Of a DNA stretch of 64,000 nt, positions 3,951 through 49,063 are shown in pieces. The notes under the pieces were generated by a model. It was not told where the DNA came from and ran no database searches. It saw only the letters and a list, made by a program, of their open reading frames with translations. Made by a program: the position numbers and the translations under genes. How positions within the stretch are numbered: the first letter of the stretch is position 1; the number at the start of each line of letters is the position of its first letter. The DNA comes from a virus: the UHGV virus genome UHGV-0041314. One strand, given 5' to 3'.

Positions 3951-6185
3951 ATGATTAAGACAATTAAAAAATCAAACGGCACAGTAGTAAGTTTTGACCC
4001 AGAAAGACTGAATAAGTGGGCATCATGGGCAGATAAGCGTGGAATTATCTGGTCAGAAGTCACTATGGAAGCCATGAAGCGTGTCTATGAGGGTTGCACT
4101 ACAAAAGAGATGCACCAAGCCATGATTGATGTTTGTGTTGATAAACAAACTCAAGAGTACTCAGATATGGCTGGACGGCTACTTCTGGGGATTATCTACA
4201 AAGAAGCCTTTGGAGGCTTTACTAAGGTTCCTACGCTGGTTACCTTCGTTAAAAATATGGAGAGAGCAGGACTTTGGGAGAAGATGGACTATTCTCAGGA
4301 AGAGCTTGAATATCTGCAAGGATACATTGTGCACTCAAAAGATATCTCTTACGGCTATGCAGTGTTGAAACAGTTCAGAGATAAATATGGTATCCGTGAT
4401 ATTAAAACTGGAAGACTTTTTGAGTCACCACAATTTATGTTTATGGGTATGGCTATGAAAGCCTTTGAGAAGCAACCAAAGCACCGTAGACTGCAAGATG
4501 TTATTAAGCTGTACACTTACCTATCTGACCTGAAGATTAATGCTCCTACACCTTATCTGAATGGTTTACGTGCTACTAAGTCAGGCTATGCGTCATGCTG
4601 TTTGATTAAGGCAAATGATACTGCTGAGTCACTTGGTATTGCTGCAAAGGTTGCTTATGATATGACTACGAAGCAAGCTGGTATTGGTATGCTGATGGAG
4701 ACTCGTACTATTGGTGATGGTATCCGTCAAAACACTATCGAACACATGGGTAAACTACCTTATTACAAGCTTGTACGTTCATCTGTAGAGGCAAATAAAC
4801 AGAAGAGTCGTGGTGGTTCAGCTAACAACTTCTACACCGCTCTAGACCCGCAGATTGAAGATTTACTACGTTTGAAGCACCCTACAACGGTCCCTTCTAA
4901 ACGTATTAATGAGATGGACTACTCATTTGGTACAAATGATTATTTCTGGCAGTGTGTTCAATATGATACAGATTGGTTGCTATTCTCTTACAAGGATGCA
5001 CCAAAACTTTATGATATGTTCTACACCGCATCTGCTGATGAGTTTGCTATGGCAGTTGGTCACGCAGTACATTCTGGTGTTAAACACAGACGAGTAAAGG
5101 CTCGTGAAATTGCTAAACTGTTTATTCAGCAGCGTTATGCAACAGGTCGTGTGTACCCATTCTTCACAAATAATGCAAACACTCATACACCATTTAAAGA
5201 GCCTTTGAAGATGTCAAATCTTTGCATGGAAATTGTGTTGCCAGTGTACGGCTTTGAGAAAGAGACAGACCTTTACAGAGACGATGCTGTGAAGGAGGAT
5301 GGTGAGGTAGCTCTTTGCTTCCTAGCTAGTTTGGTTGCAGGGAGAATTTCAGAAGATGAATACGCTGACGTTGCTTATTATGCTCTTGCAATGGTTGACT
5401 CCGTTATTGACCTTATGGATTATCCGTATCCGTCGATGCGTAACCATGTTCAGAAGCGTCGCTCTGTTGGCATTGGCCTTACAAATGTGGCTCATTACCT
5501 TGCGAAGAACTACGTGAACTACTCTTCAAGGGCTGGTAAGACAAAGCTTCACGAACTTGCAGAGATGCACTCTTACTATCTGCATGAAGCTTCTCTAAGA
5601 CTTGCTAAAGAGCGTGGTGTACCTGAATACATGAAGTTCACTAAGTACCCTGAAGGATGGGTTCCTCCGAAGACAGCTAACAAGAAGATTGATGAGAAGC
5701 ATGATGCAAAACTAAGATATGATTGGGATGACTTAGCACAACGTATCAAAGAAAATGGTGGCATCCGAAACTCTGTACTTGAGGCTTATATGCCTAATGA
5801 GAGTTCTTCACTGGCAACTAATACGACAAACGGCTTGTACCCAATTCGTGACTTTATTTTAACTAAAAAGTCTGCAACTGGTAACGTACTGTTTATTGTT
5901 CCAGATTATGAAGAGTTGAAGTATGTCTATGAAATTGCTTGGGATATTGACACCTTTGACCTGATTGATTGTTATGCAATTGTTCAAAAGTTCACTGGTC
6001 AAGCTATCTCTTCAGATTTCTATGTTGACTACGCAAAAGCTAAGAAGGTATCATTGGCTCAAGCTTTGAAGTATATGATTTATGCCAACTCGGTAGGTAT
6101 GAAAACCATGTACTACCTTAACAGTCGCATCGGTGTAGGTAAGTCTGCACTGCAAGATGCTTATTGCGAGGGCTGTGGTGTTTAG
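3951..6185 (+). CDS. nrdA: ribonucleoside-diphosphate reductase large subunit (class Ia)
   Basis: 744 aa; ATP-cone-like N-terminus; followed by small-subunit gene. Confidence 0.9.
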   Translation: MIKTIKKSNGTVVSFDPERLNKWASWADKRGIIWSEVTMEAMKRVYEGCTTKEMHQAMIDVCVDKQTQEYSDMAGRLLLGIIYKEAFGGFTKVPTLVTFVKNMERAGLWEKMDYSQEELEYLQGYIVHSKDISYGYAVLKQFRDKYGIRDIKTGRLFESPQFMFMGMAMKAFEKQPKHRRLQDVIKLYTYLSDLKINAPTPYLNGLRATKSGYASCCLIKANDTAESLGIAAKVAYDMTTKQAGIGMLMETRTIGDGIRQNTIEHMGKLPYYKLVRSSVEANKQKSRGGSANNFYTALDPQIEDLLRLKHPTTVPSKRINEMDYSFGTNDYFWQCVQYDTDWLLFSYKDAPKLYDMFYTASADEFAMAVGHAVHSGVKHRRVKAREIAKLFIQQRYATGRVYPFFTNNANTHTPFKEPLKMSNLCMEIVLPVYGFEKETDLYRDDAVKEDGEVALCFLASLVAGRISEDEYADVAYYALAMVDSVIDLMDYPYPSMRNHVQKRRSVGIGLTNVAHYLAKNYVNYSSRAGKTKLHELAEMHSYYLHEASLRLAKERGVPEYMKFTKYPEGWVPPKTANKKIDEKHDAKLRYDWDDLAQRIKENGGIRNSVLEAYMPNESSSLATNTTNGLYPIRDFILTKKSATGNVLFIVPDYEELKYVYEIAWDIDTFDLIDCYAIVQKFTGQAISSDFYVDYAKAKKVSLAQALKYMIYANSVGMKTMYYLNSRIGVGKSALQDAYCEGCGV

Positions 6186-40898: not shown

Positions 40899-41041
40899 AG
40901 ATAATCCTCTTGTCTTCTGTAATTTTGAAAGAACAGGTACAGACCAATTTCAGAGGATGAATAGTAGAGTAACTCTACCCTTTTTGATTCCTTACAGTGA
41001 TTGGTATTTTTACCTTTCTTCGGGTTATTTGATTTTCTCAT
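40880..41041 (-). CDS. small basic hypothetical protein (53 aa)
   Basis: track ORF 40880..41062 starts at TTG; ATG 41041 with AAGGAGA RBS; first gene of minus-strand block. Confidence 0.35.
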   Translation of the reverse strand: MRKSNNPKKGKNTNHCKESKRVELLYYSSSEIGLYLFFQNYRRQEDYLCVVPN

Positions 41042-41062
41042 TAAGTCTCCTTTGTAGAACAA

Positions 41063-41290
41063 GGCAGACCTACAGCTTTAAGTAAGATGGTACAGTAATC
41101 CATACAACAAGTCAAGAACTATTGCAAGTTAAAAAAGTTGTTGACAAAGTACTTGACAAGGTGTAGGCTTATAAATACTTAGAAGATAACTTAAAAGGTT
41201 CCTCTAAAAAGGCTATTTAAACAGATATCTTTCTGGATATCTATCTTTTATCTTAAAAGCCTTTTAAGAGGTCTTATAAGAGGCATACCA
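41063..41290. promoter_or_regulatory. divergent promoter region between minus- and plus-strand blocks
   Basis: 228-bp gap between divergent genes; two TTGACA hexamers (41141-41146, 41153-41158); TTAAGAG/CTTATAAG motifs shared with the 31.6-33.2 kb repeat region. Confidence 0.45.
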
Positions 41291-41662
41291 ATGAAAAACA
41301 GAACAAACAAAGGCCAGTTTAAAAAAGGCCAATCTGGAAACCCATCTGGAAGACCAAAAGGCTCTCGTAACAAAAGCTCACTTGTAAAAGCTCAACTGAC
41401 CATTGATAATTCTGCTGAGTTCGCTGCAAAGCTGTTTGAGGCGATTGTTACAAGGGACGCTGCTAAGCTTGCAGAGTTCGGGTTAAACACAGACGATGTA
41501 ACCATCAAGAGCATGATTGAGGTCGGTAAAACCATCTTTACTCACTCAGCAGGTGAGATGAAAGCACTTGCAGCAGACACTAAGAAAACCCCTGATAATG
41601 GCGGTCAGCCACAGACAGATAACAAACCAACGTTCTCTGCTGTAGCGACTCTCAAAAAATAA
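41291..41662 (+). CDS. hypothetical protein with N-terminal GNPSGRPKG motif
   Basis: FKKGQSGNPSGRPKGSRNK; AAGAGG RBS; first plus-strand gene after divergent region. Confidence 0.35.
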   Translation: MKNRTNKGQFKKGQSGNPSGRPKGSRNKSSLVKAQLTIDNSAEFAAKLFEAIVTRDAAKLAEFGLNTDDVTIKSMIEVGKTIFTHSAGEMKALAADTKKTPDNGGQPQTDNKPTFSAVATLKK

Positions 41663-41743
41663 TTTTAAAAGGTGTTGACAGACTCTACAGAGTTGCTCTA
41701 AAGTCTGTCACATCAAACAACAAATGAGAGAAGAGAGTAAAAT

Positions 41744-43159
41744 ATGAGCGAATTATTTAAACATGCGCACCTTCATGCAGGTCGAACTGAAAATGGTGCT
41801 GTAAACCATACTTCATCAATGTCTGCTCTTGTGGACTTTTACAAAGCTGCTGGTTCCAGCCGTAGCAATGTAGAAATCTTACCAGACTTGTTCTACAAAG
41901 CTTTGCGTGAGGATGTTGATGTTGCAGTTCGTATTTTGCTTCACATGCGAGATGTACGAGAAGGTATGGGCGAGCGTAAAGCCTTCAGAACTGTTTTACT
42001 TCAAGCAATCGAAGATAAAGTTTTAGAGCCTACGCAGGTTCTTCGTATTATGGATAAGATTGCAGAACTTGGTCGTTTTGATGACTTCAAAATCTTCGTA
42101 GGTACTCGTTTTGAGACAGATGCCTTCAAACATTTAGAAGCAGCATTACTAGACCCTGCAACAGCAGGTTTAGCAGCCAAGTGGTTACCACGAGTAAAAC
42201 CACGACACAAACAGTTTGTAAAACGTTTCTGCAAGTTTGCTAACTTAAGTGAGAAAGAGTACCGCACACTGTTGTCTGCACTGTCTGATACGGTTGAGCA
42301 AAAAATCTCTGCTAATGAGTTTGGTAAGATTGACTACAGCAAGATTCCTTCACTCGCTGCTGCACGTTACCAAAAACTCTTTAACCGTAAAGATGGGGAA
42401 CGTTACAAAGCTTACATTGAGTCACTCTCAAAGGGTGAGGCTAAGATTAACGCTGGTGCTGTTTACCCATATGATGTGATTAAATCTATTAAGTATGGTA
42501 ATGCAGATGTTGCGAATGAGCAGTGGAAAGCACTGCCAAACTGGATGGCAGAGGGTGAAAACATCTTGTGTATGACTGATGTTTCATGTTCAATGTCTTG
42601 GGTGAATCTTGGCTCAATCACTGCCCTTGATATTGGTGTATCCCTTGCCTTGTATGTAGCAGAACGCAATACGGGTTGCTTTAAGAATGAGTTAATGGTT
42701 TATTCAACAAACCCTCATTTTATCGAACTGAGTGGTGATTTACGAAACCGTCATCGTCAGGTAATGCGTCATGTTGAATATGGCTCAACTAACTTACAAG
42801 CAGCTTTTGACCGCATTCTTGAGGTAGGTAAGCGAAACAACTTGACTCAGAAAGATATGCCAAGTAAGCTTATTATCTTCTCTGATATGGAGTTCAATCA
42901 GGTTGATGGAGCTAACGGTCGTACAAACTTTGAAGCAATTCAGAGTAAGTACAAAAAAGCTGGATACGAAATGCCACAACTAGTATTCTGGTACTTAGCA
43001 AACCGTAATGGTACTTGCGAAGTATCTGTTAAGGATAATGGTGTAGCAATGGTATCAGGGTTCTCTCCAGCCACTTTAAAAGCTCTGCTTGGTGGTGAGA
43101 AGTTTGACCCAATCAGCGTAATGCTCAAAGCAGTAATGATTGACCGTTACATCTGGTAA
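41744..43159 (+). CDS. vWA-domain protein with MIDAS motif; possible Ro60/Rsr (TROVE+vWA)-like RNA-binding protein
   Basis: 471 aa; MIDAS-like TDVSCSMS near residue 280 after ~270-aa N-terminal region; immediately upstream of the tRNA/structured-RNA cluster. Confidence 0.3.
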   Translation: MSELFKHAHLHAGRTENGAVNHTSSMSALVDFYKAAGSSRSNVEILPDLFYKALREDVDVAVRILLHMRDVREGMGERKAFRTVLLQAIEDKVLEPTQVLRIMDKIAELGRFDDFKIFVGTRFETDAFKHLEAALLDPATAGLAAKWLPRVKPRHKQFVKRFCKFANLSEKEYRTLLSALSDTVEQKISANEFGKIDYSKIPSLAAARYQKLFNRKDGERYKAYIESLSKGEAKINAGAVYPYDVIKSIKYGNADVANEQWKALPNWMAEGENILCMTDVSCSMSWVNLGSITALDIGVSLALYVAERNTGCFKNELMVYSTNPHFIELSGDLRNRHRQVMRHVEYGSTNLQAAFDRILEVGKRNNLTQKDMPSKLIIFSDMEFNQVDGANGRTNFEAIQSKYKKAGYEMPQLVFWYLANRNGTCEVSVKDNGVAMVSGFSPATLKALLGGEKFDPISVMLKAVMIDRYIW

Positions 43160-43177
43160 AAAGTTTTAAAAAGGGTA

Positions 43178-43206
43178 TTGACAATGTGTTTGATACCCTT
43201 TAATAT
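43178..43206 (+). promoter_or_regulatory. sigma70-like promoter at the head of the tRNA cluster
   Basis: TTGACA - 17 bp - TAATAT. Confidence 0.55.
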
Positions 43207-43429
43207 GTTCTACATAGAAACGAAATGAGAGCTTTTCTAAGATACTGAAAAATATTTTAAAAAAGTTCTTGACAACCACTAAAAAATAATGTTAAAGTGG
43301 TTACATAGAGTTTGAAAATGACAGTACTGACCGGAACATCGAAAGATGGGTACTGCGCCGGGGTTTTACACCCTCCCAGCCTGAGAGCGGGATAACCAAA
43401 GGAAAGACCGAATTTATTAAGAAGTTTAT

Positions 43430-43506
43430 CTCTGTTTAGCTCAGCTTGGTAGAGCGTTCCGTTTGGGGCGGTAAGGCCGGAGGTTCAAGTCCTCCAACAG
43501 AGACCA
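43430..43506 (+). tRNA. tRNA-Pro (anticodon UGG)
   Basis: cloverleaf by eye: acceptor CTCTGTT/AACAGAG, anticodon loop TTTGGGG, T-arm GGAGG-TTCAAGT-CCTCC, CCA encoded. Confidence 0.65.
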
Positions 43507-43513
43507 AATTAAT

Positions 43514-43591
43514 GTTCCAGTAGACAAAATGGTAAAGTCACCACTCTTTCAAAGTGGATATTTGAGGGTTCAAATCCCTTCTGGAACGCCA
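43514..43591 (+). tRNA. tRNA-Glu (anticodon UUC)
   Basis: acceptor GTTCCAG/CTGGAAC, anticodon arm CCACT-CTTTCAA-AGTGG, CCA encoded. Confidence 0.7.
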
Positions 43592-43596
43592 GTTTT

Positions 43597-43672
43597 GACA
43601 GAAGACCAATTGCAGCAAACTTAATCTTATTCATCTGAAGGTAAATCGGACAAAGAAGAGATTTGGTCTGGT
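43597..43672 (+). ncRNA. structured RNA element, bulged-helix family member 1
   Basis: CAGAAGACCAA...TTGGTCTGG long-range pairing with 2-nt bulge enclosing ~55 nt A/U-rich sequence containing CAGCAA. Confidence 0.3.
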
Positions 43673-43682
43673 CATTAAGAAT

Positions 43683-43759
43683 TGCGGGTATAGAGAAAGG
43701 GCGTCTCACATGTCTCATTAGCATGGTATCGGCAGGTTCGACTCCTGCACCCGCCTCCA
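43683..43759 (+). tRNA. tRNA with CAU anticodon (Met or Ile2), irregular 5' half
   Basis: T-arm GCAGG-TTCGACT-CCTGC and CCA clear; anticodon arm CATGT-CTCATTA-GCATG; 1-72 mismatch; extra nt before D-stem. Confidence 0.45.
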
Positions 43760-43763
43760 AATT

Positions 43764-43832
43764 TACAGAAGACCGTTTACAGCAATATTTATTAAATTTT
43801 TAGCGGAAAAATTGAAAGATACGGTCTGGTAA
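43764..43832 (+). ncRNA. structured RNA element, bulged-helix family member 2
   Basis: CAGAAGACCGT...ACGGTCTGG pairing; conserved TTTACAGCAA after 5' strand. Confidence 0.3.
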
Positions 43833-43842
43833 TACTAAACAT

Positions 43843-43919
43843 GGTTAGGAAGCACATAAGGTATGTGCGGTCGCCTGTTAAGCGAATGGCACAGGGTTCG
43901 AATCCCTGACTAACCGCCA
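43843..43919 (+). tRNA. tRNA-Asn (anticodon GUU)
   Basis: acceptor GGTTAGG/ACTAACC, anticodon loop CTGTTAA, T-arm CAGGG-TTCGAAT-CCCTG, CCA. Confidence 0.7.
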
Positions 43920-43988
43920 AATTTAGGAGAGAAGCGATTGCTCACCGATTTGTAAGGTGCAAGTCCTTAGCCTGAATAGAAATTAAAT

Positions 43989-44076
43989 GTGTCGTTATCC
44001 CGTAGATGGTAGCGGTGGGGACTGTAAATCCCTTGTCATTGAGACTCGGTAGGTTCGACTCCTACACGGCACACCA
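43989..44076 (+). tRNA. tRNA-Tyr (anticodon GUA), long variable arm
   Basis: 88 nt; anticodon arm GGGGA-CTGTAAA-TCCCT; variable arm GTC/GAC; T-arm GTAGG-TTCGACT-CCTAC; CCA. Confidence 0.65.
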
Positions 44077-44082
44077 AATAAA

Positions 44083-44160
44083 GGTTATGTAGTTTAATCT
44101 GGTTAAAATACTCCCCTGTCACGGGAGATGATGAGGGTTCGAATCCCTTCGTAACCGCCA
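44083..44160 (+). tRNA. tRNA-Asp (anticodon GUC)
   Basis: acceptor GGTTATG/CGTAACC, anticodon arm CTCCC-CTGTCAC-GGGAG, CCA. Confidence 0.75.
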
Positions 44161-44245
44161 AATTATAATAAGTATTTCAAAATGATGTTTTGAGAGGGCT
44201 ATTTAGCCCCTCCCTTAAAGAGTTCTTACGAGTATTCTTTAAAGG

Positions 44246-44322
44246 AGCAGAAGACCAAATTCAGCAAGTTACTTAAAATTTCAAGCCAATTTAATTTTGA
44301 AAAATTTAAAACTTGGTCTGGC
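44246..44322 (+). ncRNA. structured RNA element, bulged-helix family member 3
   Basis: CAGAAGACCAA...TTGGTCTGG pairing; AATTCAGCAA after 5' strand. Confidence 0.3.
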
Positions 44323-44332
44323 TCAACAAATT

Positions 44333-44468
44333 TACAGAAGACCGTTTACAGCAAACTTTAAACAATCTATTTCTCCGGTAAAGAAAAGGCGAAGGTTCGA
44401 TTCCTTCACTCGGCAGATGTCGAGTTGGTGTAATGGTAGCACTTAAGATGATAAACAACGGTCTGGTA
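44333..44468 (+). ncRNA. structured RNA with circularly permuted tRNA-like module inside a long bulged helix (Y-RNA/YrlA-like candidate)
   Basis: outer helix CAGAAGACCG (44335-44344) / CGGTCTGG (44459-44466); inside, T-arm GAAGG-TTCGATT-CCTTC then acceptor 3' strand ACTCGGC, 4-nt turn, acceptor 5' strand GTCGAGT and D-arm-like TGGTGTAATGGTAGCAC. Confidence 0.4.
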
Positions 44469-44475
44469 ATTATCT

Positions 44476-44604
44476 TTGTAGATAAGTTATTAAGCTTACC
44501 TGTGAGTATGCGACCACAAAGGGTGAAAGGGTAAATTCTAGATTTAAACCCAACAAGGCACATCGCTACAGACCTTAAGCAAGTCTGGGTAGCTTATCTA
44601 CAAA
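44476..44604 (+). ncRNA. structured RNA candidate enclosed by a 10-bp long-range helix
   Basis: TGTAGATAAG (44477-44486) pairs with CTTATCTACA (44595-44604); internal CAGACC...GTCTGG hairpin. Confidence 0.25.
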
Positions 44605-44615
44605 GATGATTTAAT

Positions 44616-44691
44616 GGAAGTGTAGCAGAATGGTGATGCGGCAGACTTTTAATCTGACAGGCGATGGGTTCGAATCCCTCCACTTCTACCA
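44616..44691 (+). tRNA. tRNA-Lys (anticodon UUU)
   Basis: acceptor GGAAGTG/CACTTCT, anticodon loop CTTTTAA; weak T-stem; CCA. Confidence 0.55.
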
Positions 44692-44695
44692 ATAT

Positions 44696-44772
44696 GGTTC
44701 AGTCGCAGATAAGGTAATGCAGGGGTTTCATAAGCCCTATGAATGTGGGTTCGATTCCCATCTGAACCTCCA
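44696..44772 (+). tRNA. tRNA with CAU anticodon (Met/fMet/Ile2)
   Basis: acceptor GGTTCAG/CTGAACC perfect; anticodon arm GGGGT-TTCATAA-GCCCT (G-C rich); T-arm GTGGG-TTCGATT-CCCAT; CCA. Confidence 0.65.
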
Positions 44773-44773
44773 A

Positions 44774-44849
44774 GCTGGTATAGTTAAGAAGGTTATAACA
44801 CTCCCCTGATAAGGGAACATCGGTGGTTCGATTCCACCTACCAGTACCA
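44774..44849 (+). tRNA. tRNA-Ile (anticodon GAU)
   Basis: anticodon loop CTGATAA; T-arm GGTGG-TTCGATT-CCACC; CCA. Confidence 0.7.
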
Positions 44850-44864
44850 ATTTCAATAAAGTTG

Positions 44865-44893
44865 TTGACATTGAGATGTGACGACTTTATAGT
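44865..44893 (+). promoter_or_regulatory. sigma70-like promoter inside the tRNA cluster
   Basis: TTGACA - 17 bp - TATAGT. Confidence 0.55.
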
Positions 44894-45187
44894 AACTGAA
44901 AATGATTCAGTATATGTATAATTCAAACACCAATACATGAGCGTTAGACGTAACACAATGTGGGGAAATTTGTTGTACATATTCTGAATAGTTTTCGTTG
45001 CGTAGCGTCTATTTTGCAAATTTAAAATAAATGCAAACGACAATGTTTTTCTGGCAGTAGCTTGATAGGCTAAACACCAGTGAGGTCTTCCAATCCCTCA
45101 TCAAAGAATTTGGCGTACTAGCCCACGGTATGATTAATAAGGTGGGCATCTTTAAGGGCTTTCTAAGAGAGTCTTTAAAGATAATTA

Positions 45188-45269
45188 CGGGGCGTATCTC
45201 AGCGGTCTTCTAAACCGCCGTTAACCGAGTAAGTGGAGTATGCGGGTTCGAGTCCTGCCGCCTCGACCA
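45188..45269 (+). tRNA. tRNA-like gene with irregular 5' half; anticodon undetermined (possibly UCU)
   Basis: canonical T-arm GCGGG-TTCGAGT-CCTGC, acceptor 3' strand and CCA; D/anticodon region does not fold as a standard cloverleaf by eye. Confidence 0.35.
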
Positions 45270-45412
45270 ATTTAGTTAGCAGATTGCTTAGACGACCTTA
45301 TCGGGTCTCCGTGTAAGGAGGTGGTCTGTATCTCATGTTTTCCAGAACATGTAAATAATCTGAGAAGGGGCTTTACAGTGTTGCGAAAATACGGTAAGCT
45401 TCGAATTACAGT

Positions 45413-45495
45413 ATGGGACGATGTTAAGACTCTAAGGCATGAGCAACGGCCTCCAAAACCGTTTCAAAGGGGTTCAACTCCTCCGTCCCATGCCA
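45413..45495 (+). tRNA. tRNA-Trp-like (anticodon CCA) with ~7 extra nt between acceptor and D-arm
   Basis: 3' two-thirds canonical (ACGGC-CTCCAAA-ACCGT, T-arm, GTCCCAT, CCA); 5' acceptor strand ATGGGAC displaced upstream. Confidence 0.4.
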
Positions 45496-45508
45496 AAGTC
45501 TTATTAGG

Positions 45509-45596
45509 GGTAGGTAGCGGCTAATGGTAGCCAAACTGTCTTGAAAACAGTTGCCACTGTAGAGATACGGTGAGGGTTCGACTCCTTTACTTACCG
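45509..45596 (+). tRNA. tRNA-Ser (anticodon UGA), long variable arm
   Basis: anticodon arm ACTGT-CTTGAAA-ACAGT; T-arm GAGGG-TTCGACT-CCTTT; 3' end encodes CC only. Confidence 0.6.
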
Positions 45597-45754
45597 CCTA
45601 ATAAGATTTACACCGTCCATGCTTGCTCGCATTTTCGGTTTATCCCTCGTGTATTGGTTGTACACACTGATAAAGCACCTAGTAGGTGTCACGGAGAAGA
45701 GATAATATCAAGCTCTCCAAAGGTTCTAGTCACCGGATTAAACAAGACTATGCA

Positions 45755-45776
45755 AAGACCTAAATAGGTCTTTTTA
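45755..45776 (+). terminator. rho-independent terminator inside tRNA cluster
   Basis: AAGACC-TAAATA-GGTCTT then TTTT. Confidence 0.5.
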
Positions 45777-45854
45777 GAGGGCTTCTAAGGTTATTACAGC
45801 TTGTTGTGGAACCTTGTTGCTTAGGTTCTTAGAAGTTCTCTAAAAAGATTTAAT

Positions 45855-45932
45855 GGGAGATTGACGGTAATTGGTAAACCTACCATCCTTAGAAGTTGGT
45901 GTTTGAGGGTTCGAATCCCTTGTCTCCTACCA
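45855..45932 (+). tRNA. tRNA-Leu-like (anticodon UAG), short variable loop
   Basis: acceptor GGGAGAT/GTCTCCT, anticodon loop CTTAGAA, T-arm GAGGG-TTCGAAT-CCCTT, CCA; D region irregular. Confidence 0.45.
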
Positions 45933-45939
45933 AATTAAT

Positions 45940-46015
45940 GCAGGTGTAGCAAAATGGTTATGCGGCTGACTCTTAATCAGTAAGACGATGGGTTCAATTC
46001 CCTCCACCTGTACCA
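45940..46015 (+). tRNA. tRNA-Lys (anticodon CUU)
   Basis: acceptor GCAGGTG/CACCTGT, anticodon arm GCTGA-CTCTTAA-TCAGT, CCA. Confidence 0.55.
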
Positions 46016-46021
46016 AACATT

Positions 46022-46097
46022 GGGGTCATAGTTTATATGGTTAAAATTCGAGTTTTGCAAACTTGGGAACTGAGTTCAACTCTCAGTGACTCCACCA
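46022..46097 (+). tRNA. tRNA-Ala (anticodon UGC)
   Basis: acceptor GGGGTCA/TGACTCC, anticodon loop TTTGCAA, T-arm CTGAG-TTCAACT-CTCAG, CCA. Confidence 0.7.
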
Positions 46098-46103
46098 ATT
46101 AGT

Positions 46104-46178
46104 GCATCCATAGTTTAAACGGGAAAATTACAGTCTTCCAAACTGAGGTTGAGGGTTCGATTCCCTCTGGATGCTCCA
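46104..46178 (+). tRNA. tRNA-Gly (anticodon UCC)
   Basis: acceptor GCATCCA/TGGATGC perfect, anticodon loop CTTCCAA, T-arm GAGGG-TTCGATT-CCCTC, CCA. Confidence 0.75.
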
Positions 46179-46185
46179 AATTAAT

Positions 46186-46262
46186 GCTGCTTTCGTATAA
46201 TTGGCTATTACACATCCCTTGTAAGGATGGAAATGCAGGTTCGAGTCCTGTGAGCAGCACCA
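46186..46262 (+). tRNA. tRNA-Thr (anticodon UGU)
   Basis: anticodon arm CATCC-CTTGTAA-GGATG, T-arm GCAGG-TTCGAGT-CCTGT, CCA. Confidence 0.75.
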
Positions 46263-46263
46263 A

Positions 46264-46356
46264 TTCAGAGGTCAAGTGAAAGACCGCTTTGAGTCAACTG
46301 AAGACCGTAACAAATCCCACGGAGTTGAGTTAGCGGCACAACTTCAGACCTCTTTC
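46264..46356 (+). ncRNA. structured non-tRNA RNA between tRNA-Thr and tRNA-Val
   Basis: nested helices AGAGGTC/GACCTCT, CTGAAG/CTTCAG, TCAACT/AGTTGA; contains CTGAAGACCGTAACAA resembling the CAGAAGACC motif. Confidence 0.3.
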
Positions 46357-46358
46357 AT

Positions 46359-46433
46359 GCTCGCTTAGTTTATATGGTAAAACATCACCCTTACAAGATG
46401 AAGAAAAAGGTTCAAGTCCTTTAGTGAGTACCA
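46359..46433 (+). tRNA. tRNA-Val (anticodon UAC)
   Basis: acceptor GCTCGCT/AGTGAGT, anticodon loop CTTACAA, T-arm AAAGG-TTCAAGT-CCTTT, CCA. Confidence 0.65.
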
Positions 46434-46434
46434 T

Positions 46435-46512
46435 GTTCCAGTATCCCAATTGGCAGAGGATGCAAGCTCAAACCTTGTATTAGTGACGGTTCGAATCCGT
46501 CTTGGAACACCA
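46435..46512 (+). tRNA. tRNA-Leu-like (anticodon CAA), short variable loop
   Basis: anticodon arm GCAAG-CTCAAAC-CTTGT, T-arm GACGG-TTCGAAT-CCGTC, CCA; weak D-stem. Confidence 0.5.
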
Positions 46513-46626
46513 ATTTTAGGAGAACACTATGAGTAATAAATCAATTGCAAAAAAGTTTATAGCGTCATTCAAAAACAGGCGTAAAAACAACTCTTGTGAA
46601 AAACTGTATGGTGTTCTTGTAGGTAA

Positions 46627-46702
46627 GCAGGATTAGTTCAAATGGATAGAGCAACAGTCTACGAAGCTGTTAATAGGGGTTCGAATCCCTTATCCTGCAC
46701 CA
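46627..46702 (+). tRNA. tRNA-Arg (anticodon ACG)
   Basis: acceptor GCAGGAT/ATCCTGC perfect, D-arm GTTC/GAGC, anticodon arm ACAGT-CTACGAA-GCTGT, CCA. Confidence 0.75.
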
Positions 46703-46721
46703 ATTTAAAGAGGCTATTTAG

Positions 46722-47279
46722 ATGAGATATTTGAAGTATGCTTCATGGATTGTCTTAGCTTTGTTAGAGCCATTTGCAGCAATCTTAGCAGTTATCTTAG
46801 CACCTTTCGTAGTCCCATTCTACAGTGAGAAGAAAGGACACTTACCTTTCGGCTTCAGATGGATGGAGACATATGACAACCCAATTGATGGTGATAAAGG
46901 GCATGTCGAACGATGGGCTAAGATTAGAAAGATTGGCAAGCTTGGTGTCTATATGCAGAGAGTCGGTTGGCTCTGGAGAAACAAAGCTTATAACTTCTCT
47001 TACCATGTATTAGGAAGAGATGTAAAAGATGTTACTAAGTGGAAAGGTAATATCAACGTAAGTTCTAACCCTGAAGATAATCAGACAGGTTATCTCCTAA
47101 TGTGGAACAGTAATGCTTGGGGATTATTCGCTTTTATCCCATCAATTAAAGTCTTTGGTAAACAATTCTACTGGAGAATTTATGTTGGATGGAAGCTAAA
47201 AAGTGTTGTCCCAGAAGAAAGAGCATTCTCAAGGGAAAGAGTTATGTTGGCATTCTTTATTCATCCACTAAGAAAGTAA
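46722..47279 (+). CDS. hypothetical membrane protein embedded in tRNA cluster
   Basis: AAAGAGG RBS; N-terminal hydrophobic segment; between tRNA-Arg and tRNA-Gln. Confidence 0.45.
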   Translation: MRYLKYASWIVLALLEPFAAILAVILAPFVVPFYSEKKGHLPFGFRWMETYDNPIDGDKGHVERWAKIRKIGKLGVYMQRVGWLWRNKAYNFSYHVLGRDVKDVTKWKGNINVSSNPEDNQTGYLLMWNSNAWGLFAFIPSIKVFGKQFYWRIYVGWKLKSVVPEERAFSRERVMLAFFIHPLRK

Positions 47280-47287
47280 AGATTTAA

Positions 47288-47363
47288 AGGGGATTAGTTT
47301 ACAAGGTTAAAACCTCGGTCTTTGAAATCGAAGAAGTTGGTTCAATTCCAACATCCCCCGCCA
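47288..47363 (+). tRNA. tRNA-Gln (anticodon UUG)
   Basis: anticodon arm TCGGT-CTTTGAA-ATCGA, T-arm GTTGG-TTCAATT-CCAAC, CCA; A1-C72 mismatch. Confidence 0.65.
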
Positions 47364-47365
47364 AT

Positions 47366-47444
47366 GCTCCATTACTCCAATTGGTAGAGAGGCCAGACTT
47401 AAAATCTGTGTTATGTATCGGTTCGAATCCGATATGGAGTACCA
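47366..47444 (+). tRNA. tRNA-Leu-like (anticodon UAA), short variable loop
   Basis: anticodon loop CTTAAAA, T-arm ATCGG-TTCGAAT-CCGAT, CCA. Confidence 0.5.
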
Positions 47445-47449
47445 AATTT

Positions 47450-47525
47450 AGCGGTATAGCATAACTGGCAATGCAGCAGTCTCTGAAGCTGTCTTATTAA
47501 GGTTCAAATCCTTATGCCGCTGCCA
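47450..47525 (+). tRNA. tRNA-Gln (anticodon CUG)
   Basis: standard numbering fits: D-arm GCAT/ATGC, anticodon arm GCAGT-CTCTGAA-GCTGT, T-arm TAAGG-TTCAAAT-CCTTA, CCA. Confidence 0.7.
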
Positions 47526-47556
47526 CTTCTAAGGGTTCTTACGAGAGTCCTTAAAT

Positions 47557-47632
47557 GTGGCCTTATCATAAATGGTAATGACCCATGCTGTGAACATGGT
47601 CTATACGGGTTCAAATCCCGTAGGTCACCCCA
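47557..47632 (+). tRNA. tRNA-His (anticodon GUG)
   Basis: D-arm TCAT/ATGA, anticodon arm CCATG-CTGTGAA-CATGG, T-arm ACGGG-TTCAAAT-CCCGT, CCA. Confidence 0.75.
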
Positions 47633-47638
47633 ATTTAT

Positions 47639-47714
47639 AGTCCAAGTAGCTTATATGGTTAAAGCGCGTGTCTGAAAAACATGAGAAGAGGGTTCAAATC
47701 CCACTGGACTACCA
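47639..47714 (+). tRNA. tRNA-Phe (anticodon GAA)
   Basis: anticodon arm CGTGT-CTGAAAA-ACATG, D-arm GCTT/AAGC, CCA; acceptor/T-stem register ambiguous by 1 nt. Confidence 0.6.
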
Positions 47715-47730
47715 ATTCCAAAGGTGCTTA

Positions 47731-48465
47731 ATGAAAGAGATGACAGAACAAGGTAAGGAGATTTTTAATCTCTTAAAAACCGGTAGAGGGTTTTCTAATC
47801 CCCTTATTACTGGTGCAGCAGTTCTCGGTGGAACCGTAGCTGCCTCTACATCACTTGTAAGCTCTATTAGCTCTGTAACAGACCCTACAATAAAAGATAA
47901 ACTTGTTGCTGCTGGACTTACAACAGTTCTGCTTAACAGCTTTACAACGAGCCTGACAAGCACTACATCAACTACTAAGACACTGACAGATTACGGTCAA
48001 AAGTCCATTGATGAGTTTTCCTCACGTATGCAGGTAGCAAAAGGCTATTCTAATGTTATGGGTGCAGCAGGTGAACAAGTTGGCTGTACACCATTTAGTG
48101 GTATTATGGGTGTTGCTACAGAGTATGGTCAAAAAGCTATGGATACGATTAACAGTGCACTAGACGGTGTTAATGATGTATTAAGTGACTTACAGGATGC
48201 TATTGATAAAGGTCTTGATACTATTTCTGATTTAGCTAACCAAGCTGTTAGTAAGATTAATGAAGGTATCTCGAAGATTACAGCTTATGCAGATGAAGTT
48301 GTGCAGATGATTGAAGAAGAAGCTGCCCTTATTGCAGAGTACCTTAAAACGAATATCAATGGGTTCTTAGCAGGTATCTTACCAGACTGGTTCGACGATG
48401 CTTGTAAAACTGGTGTAATTGACACTATTGCAACACCAGAAATGAAGAACGCATTACAGAAATAA
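47731..48465 (+). CDS. hypothetical Ser/Thr-rich protein embedded in tRNA cluster
   Basis: track ORF 47668 starts at GTG inside tRNA-Phe; ATG 47731 with AAGGTG RBS lies after the tRNA. Confidence 0.4.
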   Translation: MKEMTEQGKEIFNLLKTGRGFSNPLITGAAVLGGTVAASTSLVSSISSVTDPTIKDKLVAAGLTTVLLNSFTTSLTSTTSTTKTLTDYGQKSIDEFSSRMQVAKGYSNVMGAAGEQVGCTPFSGIMGVATEYGQKAMDTINSALDGVNDVLSDLQDAIDKGLDTISDLANQAVSKINEGISKITAYADEVVQMIEEEAALIAEYLKTNINGFLAGILPDWFDDACKTGVIDTIATPEMKNALQK

Positions 48466-48467
48466 AT

Positions 48468-48560
48468 GGAAGATTAACCCTAAAAGGTAAGGGAGCAGTT
48501 TGCTAAACTGCCAGTAGCTGAGAAATCGGTGTACCAGTTCAAGTCTGGTATCTTCCTCCA
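48468..48560 (+). tRNA. tRNA-Ser (anticodon GCU), long variable arm
   Basis: 93 nt; acceptor GGAAGAT/ATCTTCC perfect, anticodon arm GCAGT-TTGCTAA-ACTGC, T-arm ACCAG-TTCAAGT-CTGGT, CCA. Confidence 0.7.
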
Positions 48561-48564
48561 ATTT

Positions 48565-48640
48565 GAATCCGTGACAGAAATGGCTATGTGCCTGTCTGCA
48601 AAACAGGTTTATAAGGGTTCGAGTCCCTTCGGATTCTCCA
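48565..48640 (+). tRNA. tRNA-Cys (anticodon GCA)
   Basis: standard numbering fits: acceptor GAATCCG/CGGATTC, anticodon arm CCTGT-CTGCAAA-ACAGG, T-arm AAGGG-TTCGAGT-CCCTT, CCA. Confidence 0.8.
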
Positions 48641-48675
48641 AGTTAATTTACTCTCTCTCAATTAAAATAATAATA

Positions 48676-48738
48676 ACGCCCTGCTATAAGTATTCTTCCT
48701 TTCGCTACCGAAGAGTATTTTTAGACAGGGCTTTTTTA
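48676..48738 (+). terminator. terminator-like long hairpin after tRNA-Cys
   Basis: GCCCTG ... CAGGGC then TTTTTT. Confidence 0.4.
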
Positions 48739-48802
48739 CAGAGTTATACTTTATAAGAAGCCTTATACAGTATGTCTCTGACGTACATTGTGGTTTCTCC
48801 TT

Positions 48803-48826
48803 GACGGTCTCTGTACCGTCTTTTTT
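48803..48826 (+). terminator. rho-independent terminator before structural module
   Basis: GACGGT-CTCTGT-ACCGTC then TTTTTT. Confidence 0.6.
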
Positions 48827-48862
48827 AAGGGGAAACATGGTTAACTATTTGGAGAAAACATA

Positions 48863-49063
48863 ATGAGCGAGACCGTTTATAAAGAACTTTACGAAGCTAA
48901 CAAGAAGCTAGAATTTATGCAGAATACTATCATGGCAATTGCAGACAGATTATCTGTAGCAACAGGTATTGATATTAAAGAAGCATCTATGGATGCACTT
49001 CTTGATGCTGTTGATGCAAAGTTCGAAGTTAAGAAAGAAGAGACTGCTACAGACTCTGAATAA
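48863..49063 (+). CDS. small hypothetical protein upstream of large terminase
   Basis: GGAGAAAACA RBS; first gene after two terminators. Confidence 0.4.
   Translation: MSETVYKELYEANKKLEFMQNTIMAIADRLSVATGIDIKEASMDALLDAVDAKFEVKKEETATDSE

Follow-up and report, generated by a model that had tools for sequence, protein, structure and literature searches.

A Ro60-like DUF2828/DUF7788 protein and its probable Y-like RNAs, one of them a permuted tRNA mimic, in Felix-O1-type phages

In the viral genome UHGV-0041314 we analyzed a stretch of 64,000 nt, referred to here as the window and used for all coordinates, in which the gene of a 471-aa protein (41744..43159, plus strand, ATG start) precedes a tRNA array with four small RNA modules. 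We consider it likely that this gene encodes a Ro60-type ring protein of the DUF2828/DUF7788 family (a toroid plus a von Willebrand factor A (vWA) domain with a metal ion-dependent adhesion site (MIDAS)), and that the four modules are its cognate RNAs, functional counterparts of Y RNAs. To our knowledge, Ro60/Y-RNA particles, which occur in animals, some bacteria and a few phages, always combine a TROVE protein with a CGAA-type RNA. The protein fold was already anticipated by the PhageMaP preprint, in which gp130 of phage Bas63 was described as structurally similar to Ro60 and as countering Ppl defence; the preprint speculates that some of the 'tRNA genes' of Bas63 are Y RNAs and identifies or locates no RNA (PMC11482910). 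In the available literature we found neither the RNA family and its breadth nor the identity of its signature with that of the dictyostelid Class I RNAs.

When the region 41700-44900 was compared by megablast, 303 phage records matched, and the top matches (96-98% identity) were Felix-O1-type myoviruses of Escherichia and Salmonella, genus Felixounavirus. ARAGORN located 25 tRNAs, all on the plus strand, spanning 43430 to 48640. A preliminary description of this DNA had placed a 471-aa protein with the MIDAS-like sequence TDVSCSMS directly upstream of the tRNA cluster. Indeed, the open reading frame (ORF) was found, the first tRNA starts 270 nt past its end on the same strand, and the MIDAS residues are invariant among 45 homologues. 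The same gene order, from a DUF5681 ORF through the 471-aa ORF (bas63_0130) to the tRNA array, is seen in Bas63 (JohannRWettstein), and the gp130 gene of this phage, with approximately 96% identical DNA in the same place before the array, is the orthologue.

Residues ~1-265 of the protein form a helical-repeat (TROVE-like) ring that is closed by a C-terminal vWA domain (residues ~270-471), which is the Ro60 fold. The MIDAS motif is complete: TDVSCSMS corresponds to residues 278-285 (nt 42575-42598, with DVSCS at nt 42578-42592), and the invariant residues are D279, S281, S283, T349 and D381. Only two Pfam families matched, DUF7788 (residues 275-455, E 2e-43) and DUF2828 (E 3e-29), and PHROGs assigned the protein to family 850, 'RNA-binding protein'. 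The profile comparison with TROVE that had been proposed for this protein gave no match: none of the 45 family members matched Pfam TROVE (PF05731), even at E ≤ 10, and sequence and profile searches against PDB chains, including Ro60, yielded noise alone. Identity to Ro60 is approximately 13%, and Pfam vWA_Ro60 was matched weakly by nine of the 45 relatives. Because ring, vWA domain and MIDAS motif are present and the TROVE sequence match is absent from all 45 relatives, the protein is a Ro60 type in architecture and a member of another sequence family, the divergent DUF2828/DUF7788. An exhaustive profile search (E ≤ 1e-3) found 8,843 clusters of this family at 50% identity, and the best 150 matches were all phage-like; DUF2828 proteins also occur in plants and mimivirus-like sequences.

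Within the tRNA array, the same terminal helix and motif occur four times, at 43596-43674, 43763-43832, 44245-44324 and 44332-44469 (modules 1 to 4, all on the plus strand). The sequence CAGAAGACC has exactly four copies in the 64 kb, all inside 740 nt, and the pattern AGAAGACC-N30-60-GGTCTGG was found three times, compared to zero in 100 shuffles. RNAfold predicted a two-tier helix alike for all four modules, in which the outer 4-bp helix varies but stays paired among the paralogues (UGAC/GUCA, UUAC/GUAA, GAGC/GCUC). Modules 1 to 3 are of a short type. Module 1, which lies between tRNA-Glu and tRNA-Met and is kept in Felix-like loci, comprises the outer helix UGAC/GUCA, an AGA/G internal loop, the stem AGACCAA/UUGGUCU, UUG-CAGCAA (motif at 43613-18) and a variable hairpin. 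In module 2, between tRNA-Met and tRNA-Asn, the corresponding parts are UUAC/GUAA, AGACCGU/ACGGUCU and UUA-CAGCAA (43780-85), and in module 3 they are GAGC/GCUC, AGACCAA/UUGGUCU and AUU-CAGCAA (44262-67). The covariance model R1, described below, scored these three at 34.7 bits (E 2e-5), 42.9 bits (E 1e-7) and 35.6 bits (E 1e-5), respectively. When 41000-49000 was searched with the filters off, the top four R1 matches fell on modules 1 to 3 and on the 5' portion of module 4. The preliminary description had noticed structured RNAs after the gene; it recognized the tRNA-like module and overlooked the three shorter ones as well as the link to Class I RNAs.

Module 4 (44332..44469) is of the tRNA-like, or YrlA-like, type and starts 1.17 kb downstream of the gene, with CAGCAA at 44349-54. 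A T-arm, two acceptor strands, a 4-nt turn and a D-arm-like segment had been reported for 44333..44468, and each was found: the T-arm GAAGG-UUCGAUU-CCUUC (44391-44407), the acceptor-like stem ACUCGGC (44408-14)/GUCGAGU (44419-25) of 7 bp including one G.U pair, capped by AGAU (44415-18), and the D-arm GGUG-UAAUGGUAG-CACU (44427-43). The long closing helix exists too, not as CAGAAGACCG/CGGTCTGG end to end but as two helices, an inner one of AGACCGUU/AACGGUCU (44339-46 with 44457-64) and an outer 4-bp one of UUAC/GUAA (44332-35 with 44466-69), split by an AGA/G internal loop. The view that this helix replaces the anticodon stem had to be given up, since an anticodon-arm-like hairpin, UUUCU-CCGGUAA-AGAAA (44370-86), precedes the T-arm. 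For this reason, the domain is a whole tRNA body permuted between D-arm and anticodon arm. Module 4 is conserved in 248 phage records, mostly without annotation, approximately 205 of them at 95-100% identity, and its acceptor-like stem shows compensatory changes across Ounavirinae genera (ACUCGGC/GUCGAGU, ACACG/CGUGU, ACCCUUC/GAAGGGU). On account of this conservation and these changes, the module architecture, as judged by comparison, exceeds chance.

As for existing annotation, the modules of Bas63 lie between annotated tRNAs, partly under the small minus-strand hypothetical coding sequences bas63_0137/0138, which are probably spurious. The module 4 region is labelled 'tRNA-Thr' in the record of phage REP6, and the GenBank records MZ501086.1, OQ174505.1 and GU169904.1 concern the modules. 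One record, under the name Staphylococcus phage SA1, has a 97%-identical copy, suggesting that this record is mislabelled or mixed.

We compared 80 viral loci with homologous genes, five of them Felix-like and the remainder 39-47% identical (L numbers below are our labels for these loci). A first, loose expression for a stem plus the motif was uninformative (725 versus 704 matches by strand). A strict descriptor (stem of 7 bp or more, 1-4 nt, C[ACU]GCA[AU], 3' strand, G) matched 141 times on the gene strand versus 22 times on the opposite strand. The module consensus reads N-G-stem, approximately 3 nt, CAGCAA, a variable part and stem-C-N'-G, with a nearly fixed spacing between the G and the motif. 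In the seed A3 of 27 sequences, no variation is seen at G5, C55 and G57 or at the motif positions C14, G16, C17 and A18, and of the seven stem pairs six are altered on both sides. A MAFFT alignment of the full-length tRNA-like RNAs (A2) was discarded because the 3' halves were misaligned. Therefore, the seeds of R1 and of the model R2 introduced below were trimmed to equal length by cutting nucleotides from the variable middle, where they are artificial; the search matches are real sequence.

R1 was built from A3 and searched against both strands of 944 kb (76 loci and the window). At E ≤ 1 it gave 76 matches, all on the gene strand and none inside the gene. Sixty-one of these are no more than 500 nt from an end of the gene, a zone that makes up 8% of the searched sequence, and the matches are found both upstream (31) and downstream (45) of the gene. 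Modules were also detected in loci outside the seed (L085, L087 and Mordin): in L085 the module stands just downstream of the gene and is followed by 19 tRNAs, and in L087 it stands just downstream without any tRNA. By R1 and the descriptor together, the module is present in 66 of the 80 loci. Conservation and covariation of the RNA, and its co-location with the gene on the same strand, thus extend over deep divergence.

The tRNA-like form recurs as well. Orphan T-arms adjoin the gene on its own strand in many of the 80 loci, and inspection revealed the plan of module 4. The order T-arm, capped acceptor stem, U/UA and D-arm was found in at least 12 distant loci with differing sequences and heavy covariation. 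Among 14 tabulated tRNA-like RNAs there are 11 different T-stems; the acceptor-like stems (7-8 bp) have unrelated sequences, are mostly closed by a tetraloop and directly abut the T-arm without a spacer, and 1-2 nt (U or UA, like tRNA positions 8-9) separate them from the D-arm. Over all modules, the variable part is of at least three kinds, namely a short hairpin, the tRNA-like domain and larger domains of 140-185 nt.

Individual loci illustrate this variety. A larger class in L007, L008, L012, L015 and L024 (e.g., L008:3133-3233) carries CCUUUCUGGAGGGGAAAG..AAAACUCGCC within the same closing stem, and a further class of 140-177 nt ends with GGGUU(U)AGA(A/G)GUAAAUGCCCC. In L040 (5734-5834), immediately upstream of the DUF2828 gene, a Y-type closing stem with the motif (AGGUUAG..CAGCAA...CUAACCUG) encloses a complete tRNA of normal order (5753-5824, tRNA-Thr by ARAGORN).

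Bacterial Rsr (Ro60) is known with YrlA/YrlB RNAs from Salmonella Typhimurium and Mycobacterium smegmatis (Chen et al. 2014, PMC4201824). Like an Rsr/YrlA locus, the window encodes a ring and vWA protein beside several small RNAs, and like the Rsr/YrlB system it has a second RNA type without a full tRNA-like domain. Module 4 shares with YrlA a terminal helix around T-arm, closed acceptor-like stem-loop and D-arm, in this order, and a place beside a Ro60-type gene, from which the modules of relatives are usually not more than 500 nt away. Unlike Rsr, the window protein is DUF2828/DUF7788 without a Pfam TROVE match, and unlike an Rsr/YrlA locus, the four RNAs lie inside a tRNA array with no rtcBA context. 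The Ro60-binding module of YrlA has a conserved GNCGAA(N0-1)G in its 5' strand (PMC4201824); instead of this, the conserved motif of the phage modules is UUNCAGCAA, located 3' of the 5' stem strand. The Rfam YrlA model (RF02553) recognized some tRNA-like RNAs of distant loci, namely those of L019 (39.2 bits, E 3.7e-5), L079 (36.7 bits, full length), L063 (26.7 bits) and L012 (24.7 bits), a further E value being 1.9e-4, and none reached the gathering score of 69 bits. Module 4 is best described as YrlA-like in design and outside the YrlA family as currently modelled. The earlier proposal of an Rsr-YrlA-type module is thus correct at the level of type (fold, order of parts, co-location) and incorrect with regard to membership in Pfam TROVE or Rfam YrlA.

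A phage precedent exists in Thermus phage phiLo, whose TROVE-type Ro60 binds two gene-adjacent RNAs (Yrl1/Yrl2) and host PNPase; TROVE-type Ro60 is also present in mycobacteriophages, CcrColossus and phage G (PMC12135203). In contrast to the window protein, phiLo Ro60 falls among the recognised TROVE proteins, and CGAA is present in its RNAs. Binding and PNPase recruitment were demonstrated for phiLo.

Several points weigh against a Ro60-type protein with Y-like partner RNAs. Besides the missing TROVE match, the YrlA covariance-model search that had been suggested for this region gave no match in the window and none on 44300-44500 (201 nt) even at E ≤ 10, and the canonical CGAA or GNCGAA(N)G motif of Y RNAs is absent from the window modules. 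The 100% pairing in A3 is partly circular, as the seeds were picked for pairing, and the strand bias of the matches is inflated by the largely co-oriented genes of these phages, which leave the positional clustering unaffected. The folding energies of the modules were only weakly better than those of shuffles (z -0.4 to -2.1, with -2.1 for module 2 and -1.9 for module 3); therefore, support for the modules rests on comparison and not on thermodynamics. Finally, the anti-Ppl effect was credited to the protein, the RNAs being outside the tests of the preprint (PMC11482910).

The position of the window modules, all between same-strand tRNAs, would also fit a cis-acting role as punctuation in the tRNA precursor (as attenuators, processing guides or RNase E/III sites) that is unrelated to the protein and near it only through a shared 'early/tRNA' region, and approximately half of the related loci do have tRNA clusters beside the gene. 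However, modules adjoin the gene with no tRNA within 6-7 kb in L009, L013, L026, L087 and many others, and they occur on either side of it. The invariant single-stranded CAGCAA together with the G-C pair and the 3' G resembles a protein-binding signature, and Dictyostelium RNAs with the same signature, the Class I RNAs, exist as stable and abundant species in their own right (PMC7919456). We therefore regard a punctuation role as unlikely.

It is also conceivable that the protein alone inhibits the host Ppl defence by protein-protein contact through its vWA/MIDAS domain and that the RNAs act separately, e.g., as decoys for tRNA-targeting nucleases. In PhageMaP, the plaque defect was complemented by the gene alone as described (PMC11482910), and MIDAS domains are classical protein-binding modules. 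Yet gene and RNA motif co-occur in most loci down to approximately 40% protein identity, a pattern difficult to account for unless the two are direct partners, and wherever the Ro60 ring has been characterised it serves as an RNA-binding architecture, so that we give this explanation little chance. That module 4 is a decayed or rearranged tRNA pseudogene, an alternative already raised in the preliminary description, and the short modules remnants of local duplication is very improbable: the Rfam tRNA model does align 44351-44415, in a permuted manner, at 24.7 bits, just below its gathering score of 29, and one GenBank record has the tRNA-Thr label, but a permuted order cannot give a tRNA, ARAGORN calls none there, and this order is kept in the near-identical records, with compensatory stem changes in other genera and with unrelated sequences in the distant loci.

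The function of the dictyostelid Class I RNAs, which are abundant and subject to developmental regulation, has been unexplained since 2004. These RNAs (RF01414; Aspegren 2004, Avesson 2011, Kjellin 2021) are 42-65 nt long and have a 6-bp covarying terminal stem, an AAG start, a 5' G that never varies and pairs with the C of 3' CUGU, and an unpaired 11-nt motif by the 5' strand (PMC7919456). The phage modules have in common with them the (A)AG start, a terminal stem of 6-7 bp that varies but stays paired, a length of approximately 50-70 nt, an invariant 5' G paired to the C of 3' CUG(U), a single-stranded (C)UUACAGCAA beside the 5' strand and a variable remainder. In the 27 phage modules, the pair G5-C55 and G57 are invariant and the other pairs covary, as in the Class I stem. 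The counterparts of the Class I motif of approximately 11 nt, CCUUACAGCAA, are GUUUACAGCAA, UUGCAGCAA and AUUCAGCAA in the window, and the exact CCUUACAGCAA is present in several relatives, e.g., L016 and L020. The dictyostelid examples GUUGAC-CUUACAGCAA...GUCAAC-UG and GGUCUC-AUCACAGCAA...GAGACC-UG (sequences from PMC7919456) have their window counterpart in (A)GACCGU-UUACAGCAA...ACGGUC-UG.

RF01414 (Dicty_Class_I_RNA) was the one further Rfam family with repeated matches to the modules. Its model matched the window at 43771-43828 (20.1 bits) and 44340-44465 (14.7 bits), and relatives at L037 7689-7748 (26.4 bits) and L047 3960-4017 (23.4 bits). Every match coincides with a module and none lies elsewhere in approximately 128 kb; the gathering score of 41.5 bits was reached by no phage module (best 26.4). 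R2, a model built from 34 dictyostelid sequences alone, gave 42 matches at E ≤ 10 when run on the phage loci, 41 of them on the gene strand. Nine had E < 0.01 (8e-5 to 0.004), all beside a DUF2828 gene, and the match to window 43771-43828 was weak (14.3 bits, E 0.85).

Class I RNA genes are eukaryotic, possess their own DUSE promoters and are described as unique to Dictyostelia (PMC7919456), unlike the window modules. Since the latter are sequence of a phage genome, they are at most a homologue or analogue of Class I RNAs and no member of the family as now defined. One Class I binder has been proven, the RRM protein Rnp1A/CIBP, and pull-downs with DdR-21 yielded GuaB, NdkC, Rnp1A/CIBP and the uncharacterised DDB_G0281243. 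In the available literature we found no link between Class I RNAs and Ro60-like proteins, and nothing on a dictyostelid DUF2828 protein or on the identity of DDB_G0281243. The common signature suggests what the amoeba Class I RNAs might bind. We tentatively propose, as a real possibility short of an expectation, that phage modules and Class I RNAs form a single RNA family whose members are cognate ligands of DUF2828/DUF7788 Ro60-fold proteins, Class I RNAs being the 'Y RNAs' of a DUF2828 ribonucleoprotein. If so, DUF2828/DUF7788 would be a second, very large Ro60-fold lineage in phages, giant viruses, plants and possibly amoebae, and the tRNA-like (YrlA-like) and short (YrlB-like) forms of the phages would have counterparts among the Class I RNAs. 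In any case, the signature match gives a checkable hypothesis on the protein partner and origin of Class I RNAs.

Two Class I RNAs, asu_can_20 and ppa_can_99 (PMC7919456, supplement 48), hold T-arm-like hairpins, CUAGG-UUCGAUC-CCUAG and UUGG-UUCGAAU-CCGA. In asu_can_20 the hairpin is followed by an 8-bp GCAA-capped stem, a feature not remarked on in PMC7919456.

With the modules taken as partner RNAs of the ring protein, binding, RNA processing, RNA stability and biological role can be outlined, as we infer them, in the following way. The modules would most likely be co-transcribed with the tRNAs from strong early-type TTGACA promoters at 43178 and 43269, and freed as RNase P and 3' processing trim the adjoining tRNAs. 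The ring protein would recognise the invariant part, i.e., the base of the terminal helix (the G-C pair with the N-N' pair outside), the unpaired 3' G and the single-stranded UUNCAGCAA. The variable part, a small hairpin alone in three modules, may serve as the effector or decoy end, and the closed permuted tRNA body of module 4 might bind nucleases or host factors that recognise tRNA. The particle might gate or tether RNA-handling enzymes in infection, as the analogy with Rsr/YrlA/PNPase and phiLo Ro60/Yrl/PNPase suggests. It may thereby aid the phage against host defence, the Bas63 orthologue being needed to overcome Ppl.

The system would be a far larger sister of the known Ro60 particles that has apparently been overlooked, its 8,843 clusters being annotated as DUF2828 or 'hypothetical'. 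Its partner RNA is predictable from sequence and is unannotated in hundreds of well-studied Felix-O1-type therapeutic phages. For the anti-defence phenotype of Bas63 gp130, the modules supply RNA candidates and a testable mechanism, an RNA particle with a tRNA mimic.

The promoters are predicted by pattern alone, all on the plus strand. A consensus scan found one sigma-70-like promoter, TTGACA-18-TAAAGT (41675..41704, 10/12), upstream of the Ro60-like gene, and two (43178-43206 and 43269-43298, 10/12 each) ahead of the array of tRNAs and Y-like RNAs. The -35-like hexamers (TTGACA/TTTACA) over the 5' ends of modules 1, 2 and 4 were rejected as promoters because they are part of the outer helix and have no good -10 partners. 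Rfam searches over 43100-49000 and 44300-44500 gave no above-threshold family for the modules, and weak matches to sraL, tmRNA, miRNA and plastid families were judged to be chance or tRNA-derived.

Some neighbouring genes deserve mention. In L087 (9243-15401), the 7 kb after gene and module contain Metallophos, HAD, AAA_33 (kinase-like) and T4 Rnl1-type RNA ligase genes, a combination reminiscent of an RNA-repair set. In L025, L031, L033, L035 and L052, tmRNA genes share the strand of the DUF2828 gene and are at most approximately 6 kb away from it. Anecdotally, these repair-gene, tRNA and tmRNA neighbours point to surveillance of tRNA or translation-related RNA. PADLOC returned no defence-system match. 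Just 5' of the Ro60-like gene, a DUF5681 ORF with a basic N-terminus (41291-41662, plus strand) keeps its position in Bas63 and Mordin.

Three further plus-strand elements were noted in the array. A 147-nt element at 44466-44612, directly 3' of module 4, is closed by a helix of approximately 24 bp (minimum free energy (MFE) -48.4 kcal/mol, z -5.96 versus shuffles); it has no Rfam match and may be a further structured RNA. At 45188-45269, a tRNA-like sequence has an orphan T-arm, GCGGG-UUCGAGU-CCUGC, and an anticodon-type loop, CUUCUAA; it was not called by ARAGORN in the window and matched the tmRNA model weakly, and its equivalent is annotated as tRNA-Arg in Bas63 and Mordin. Between tRNA-Thr and tRNA-Val, a spacer of 96 nt (46263-46358) folds well (MFE -30, z -3.8) and holds CUGAAGACC, one mismatch from the module repeat.

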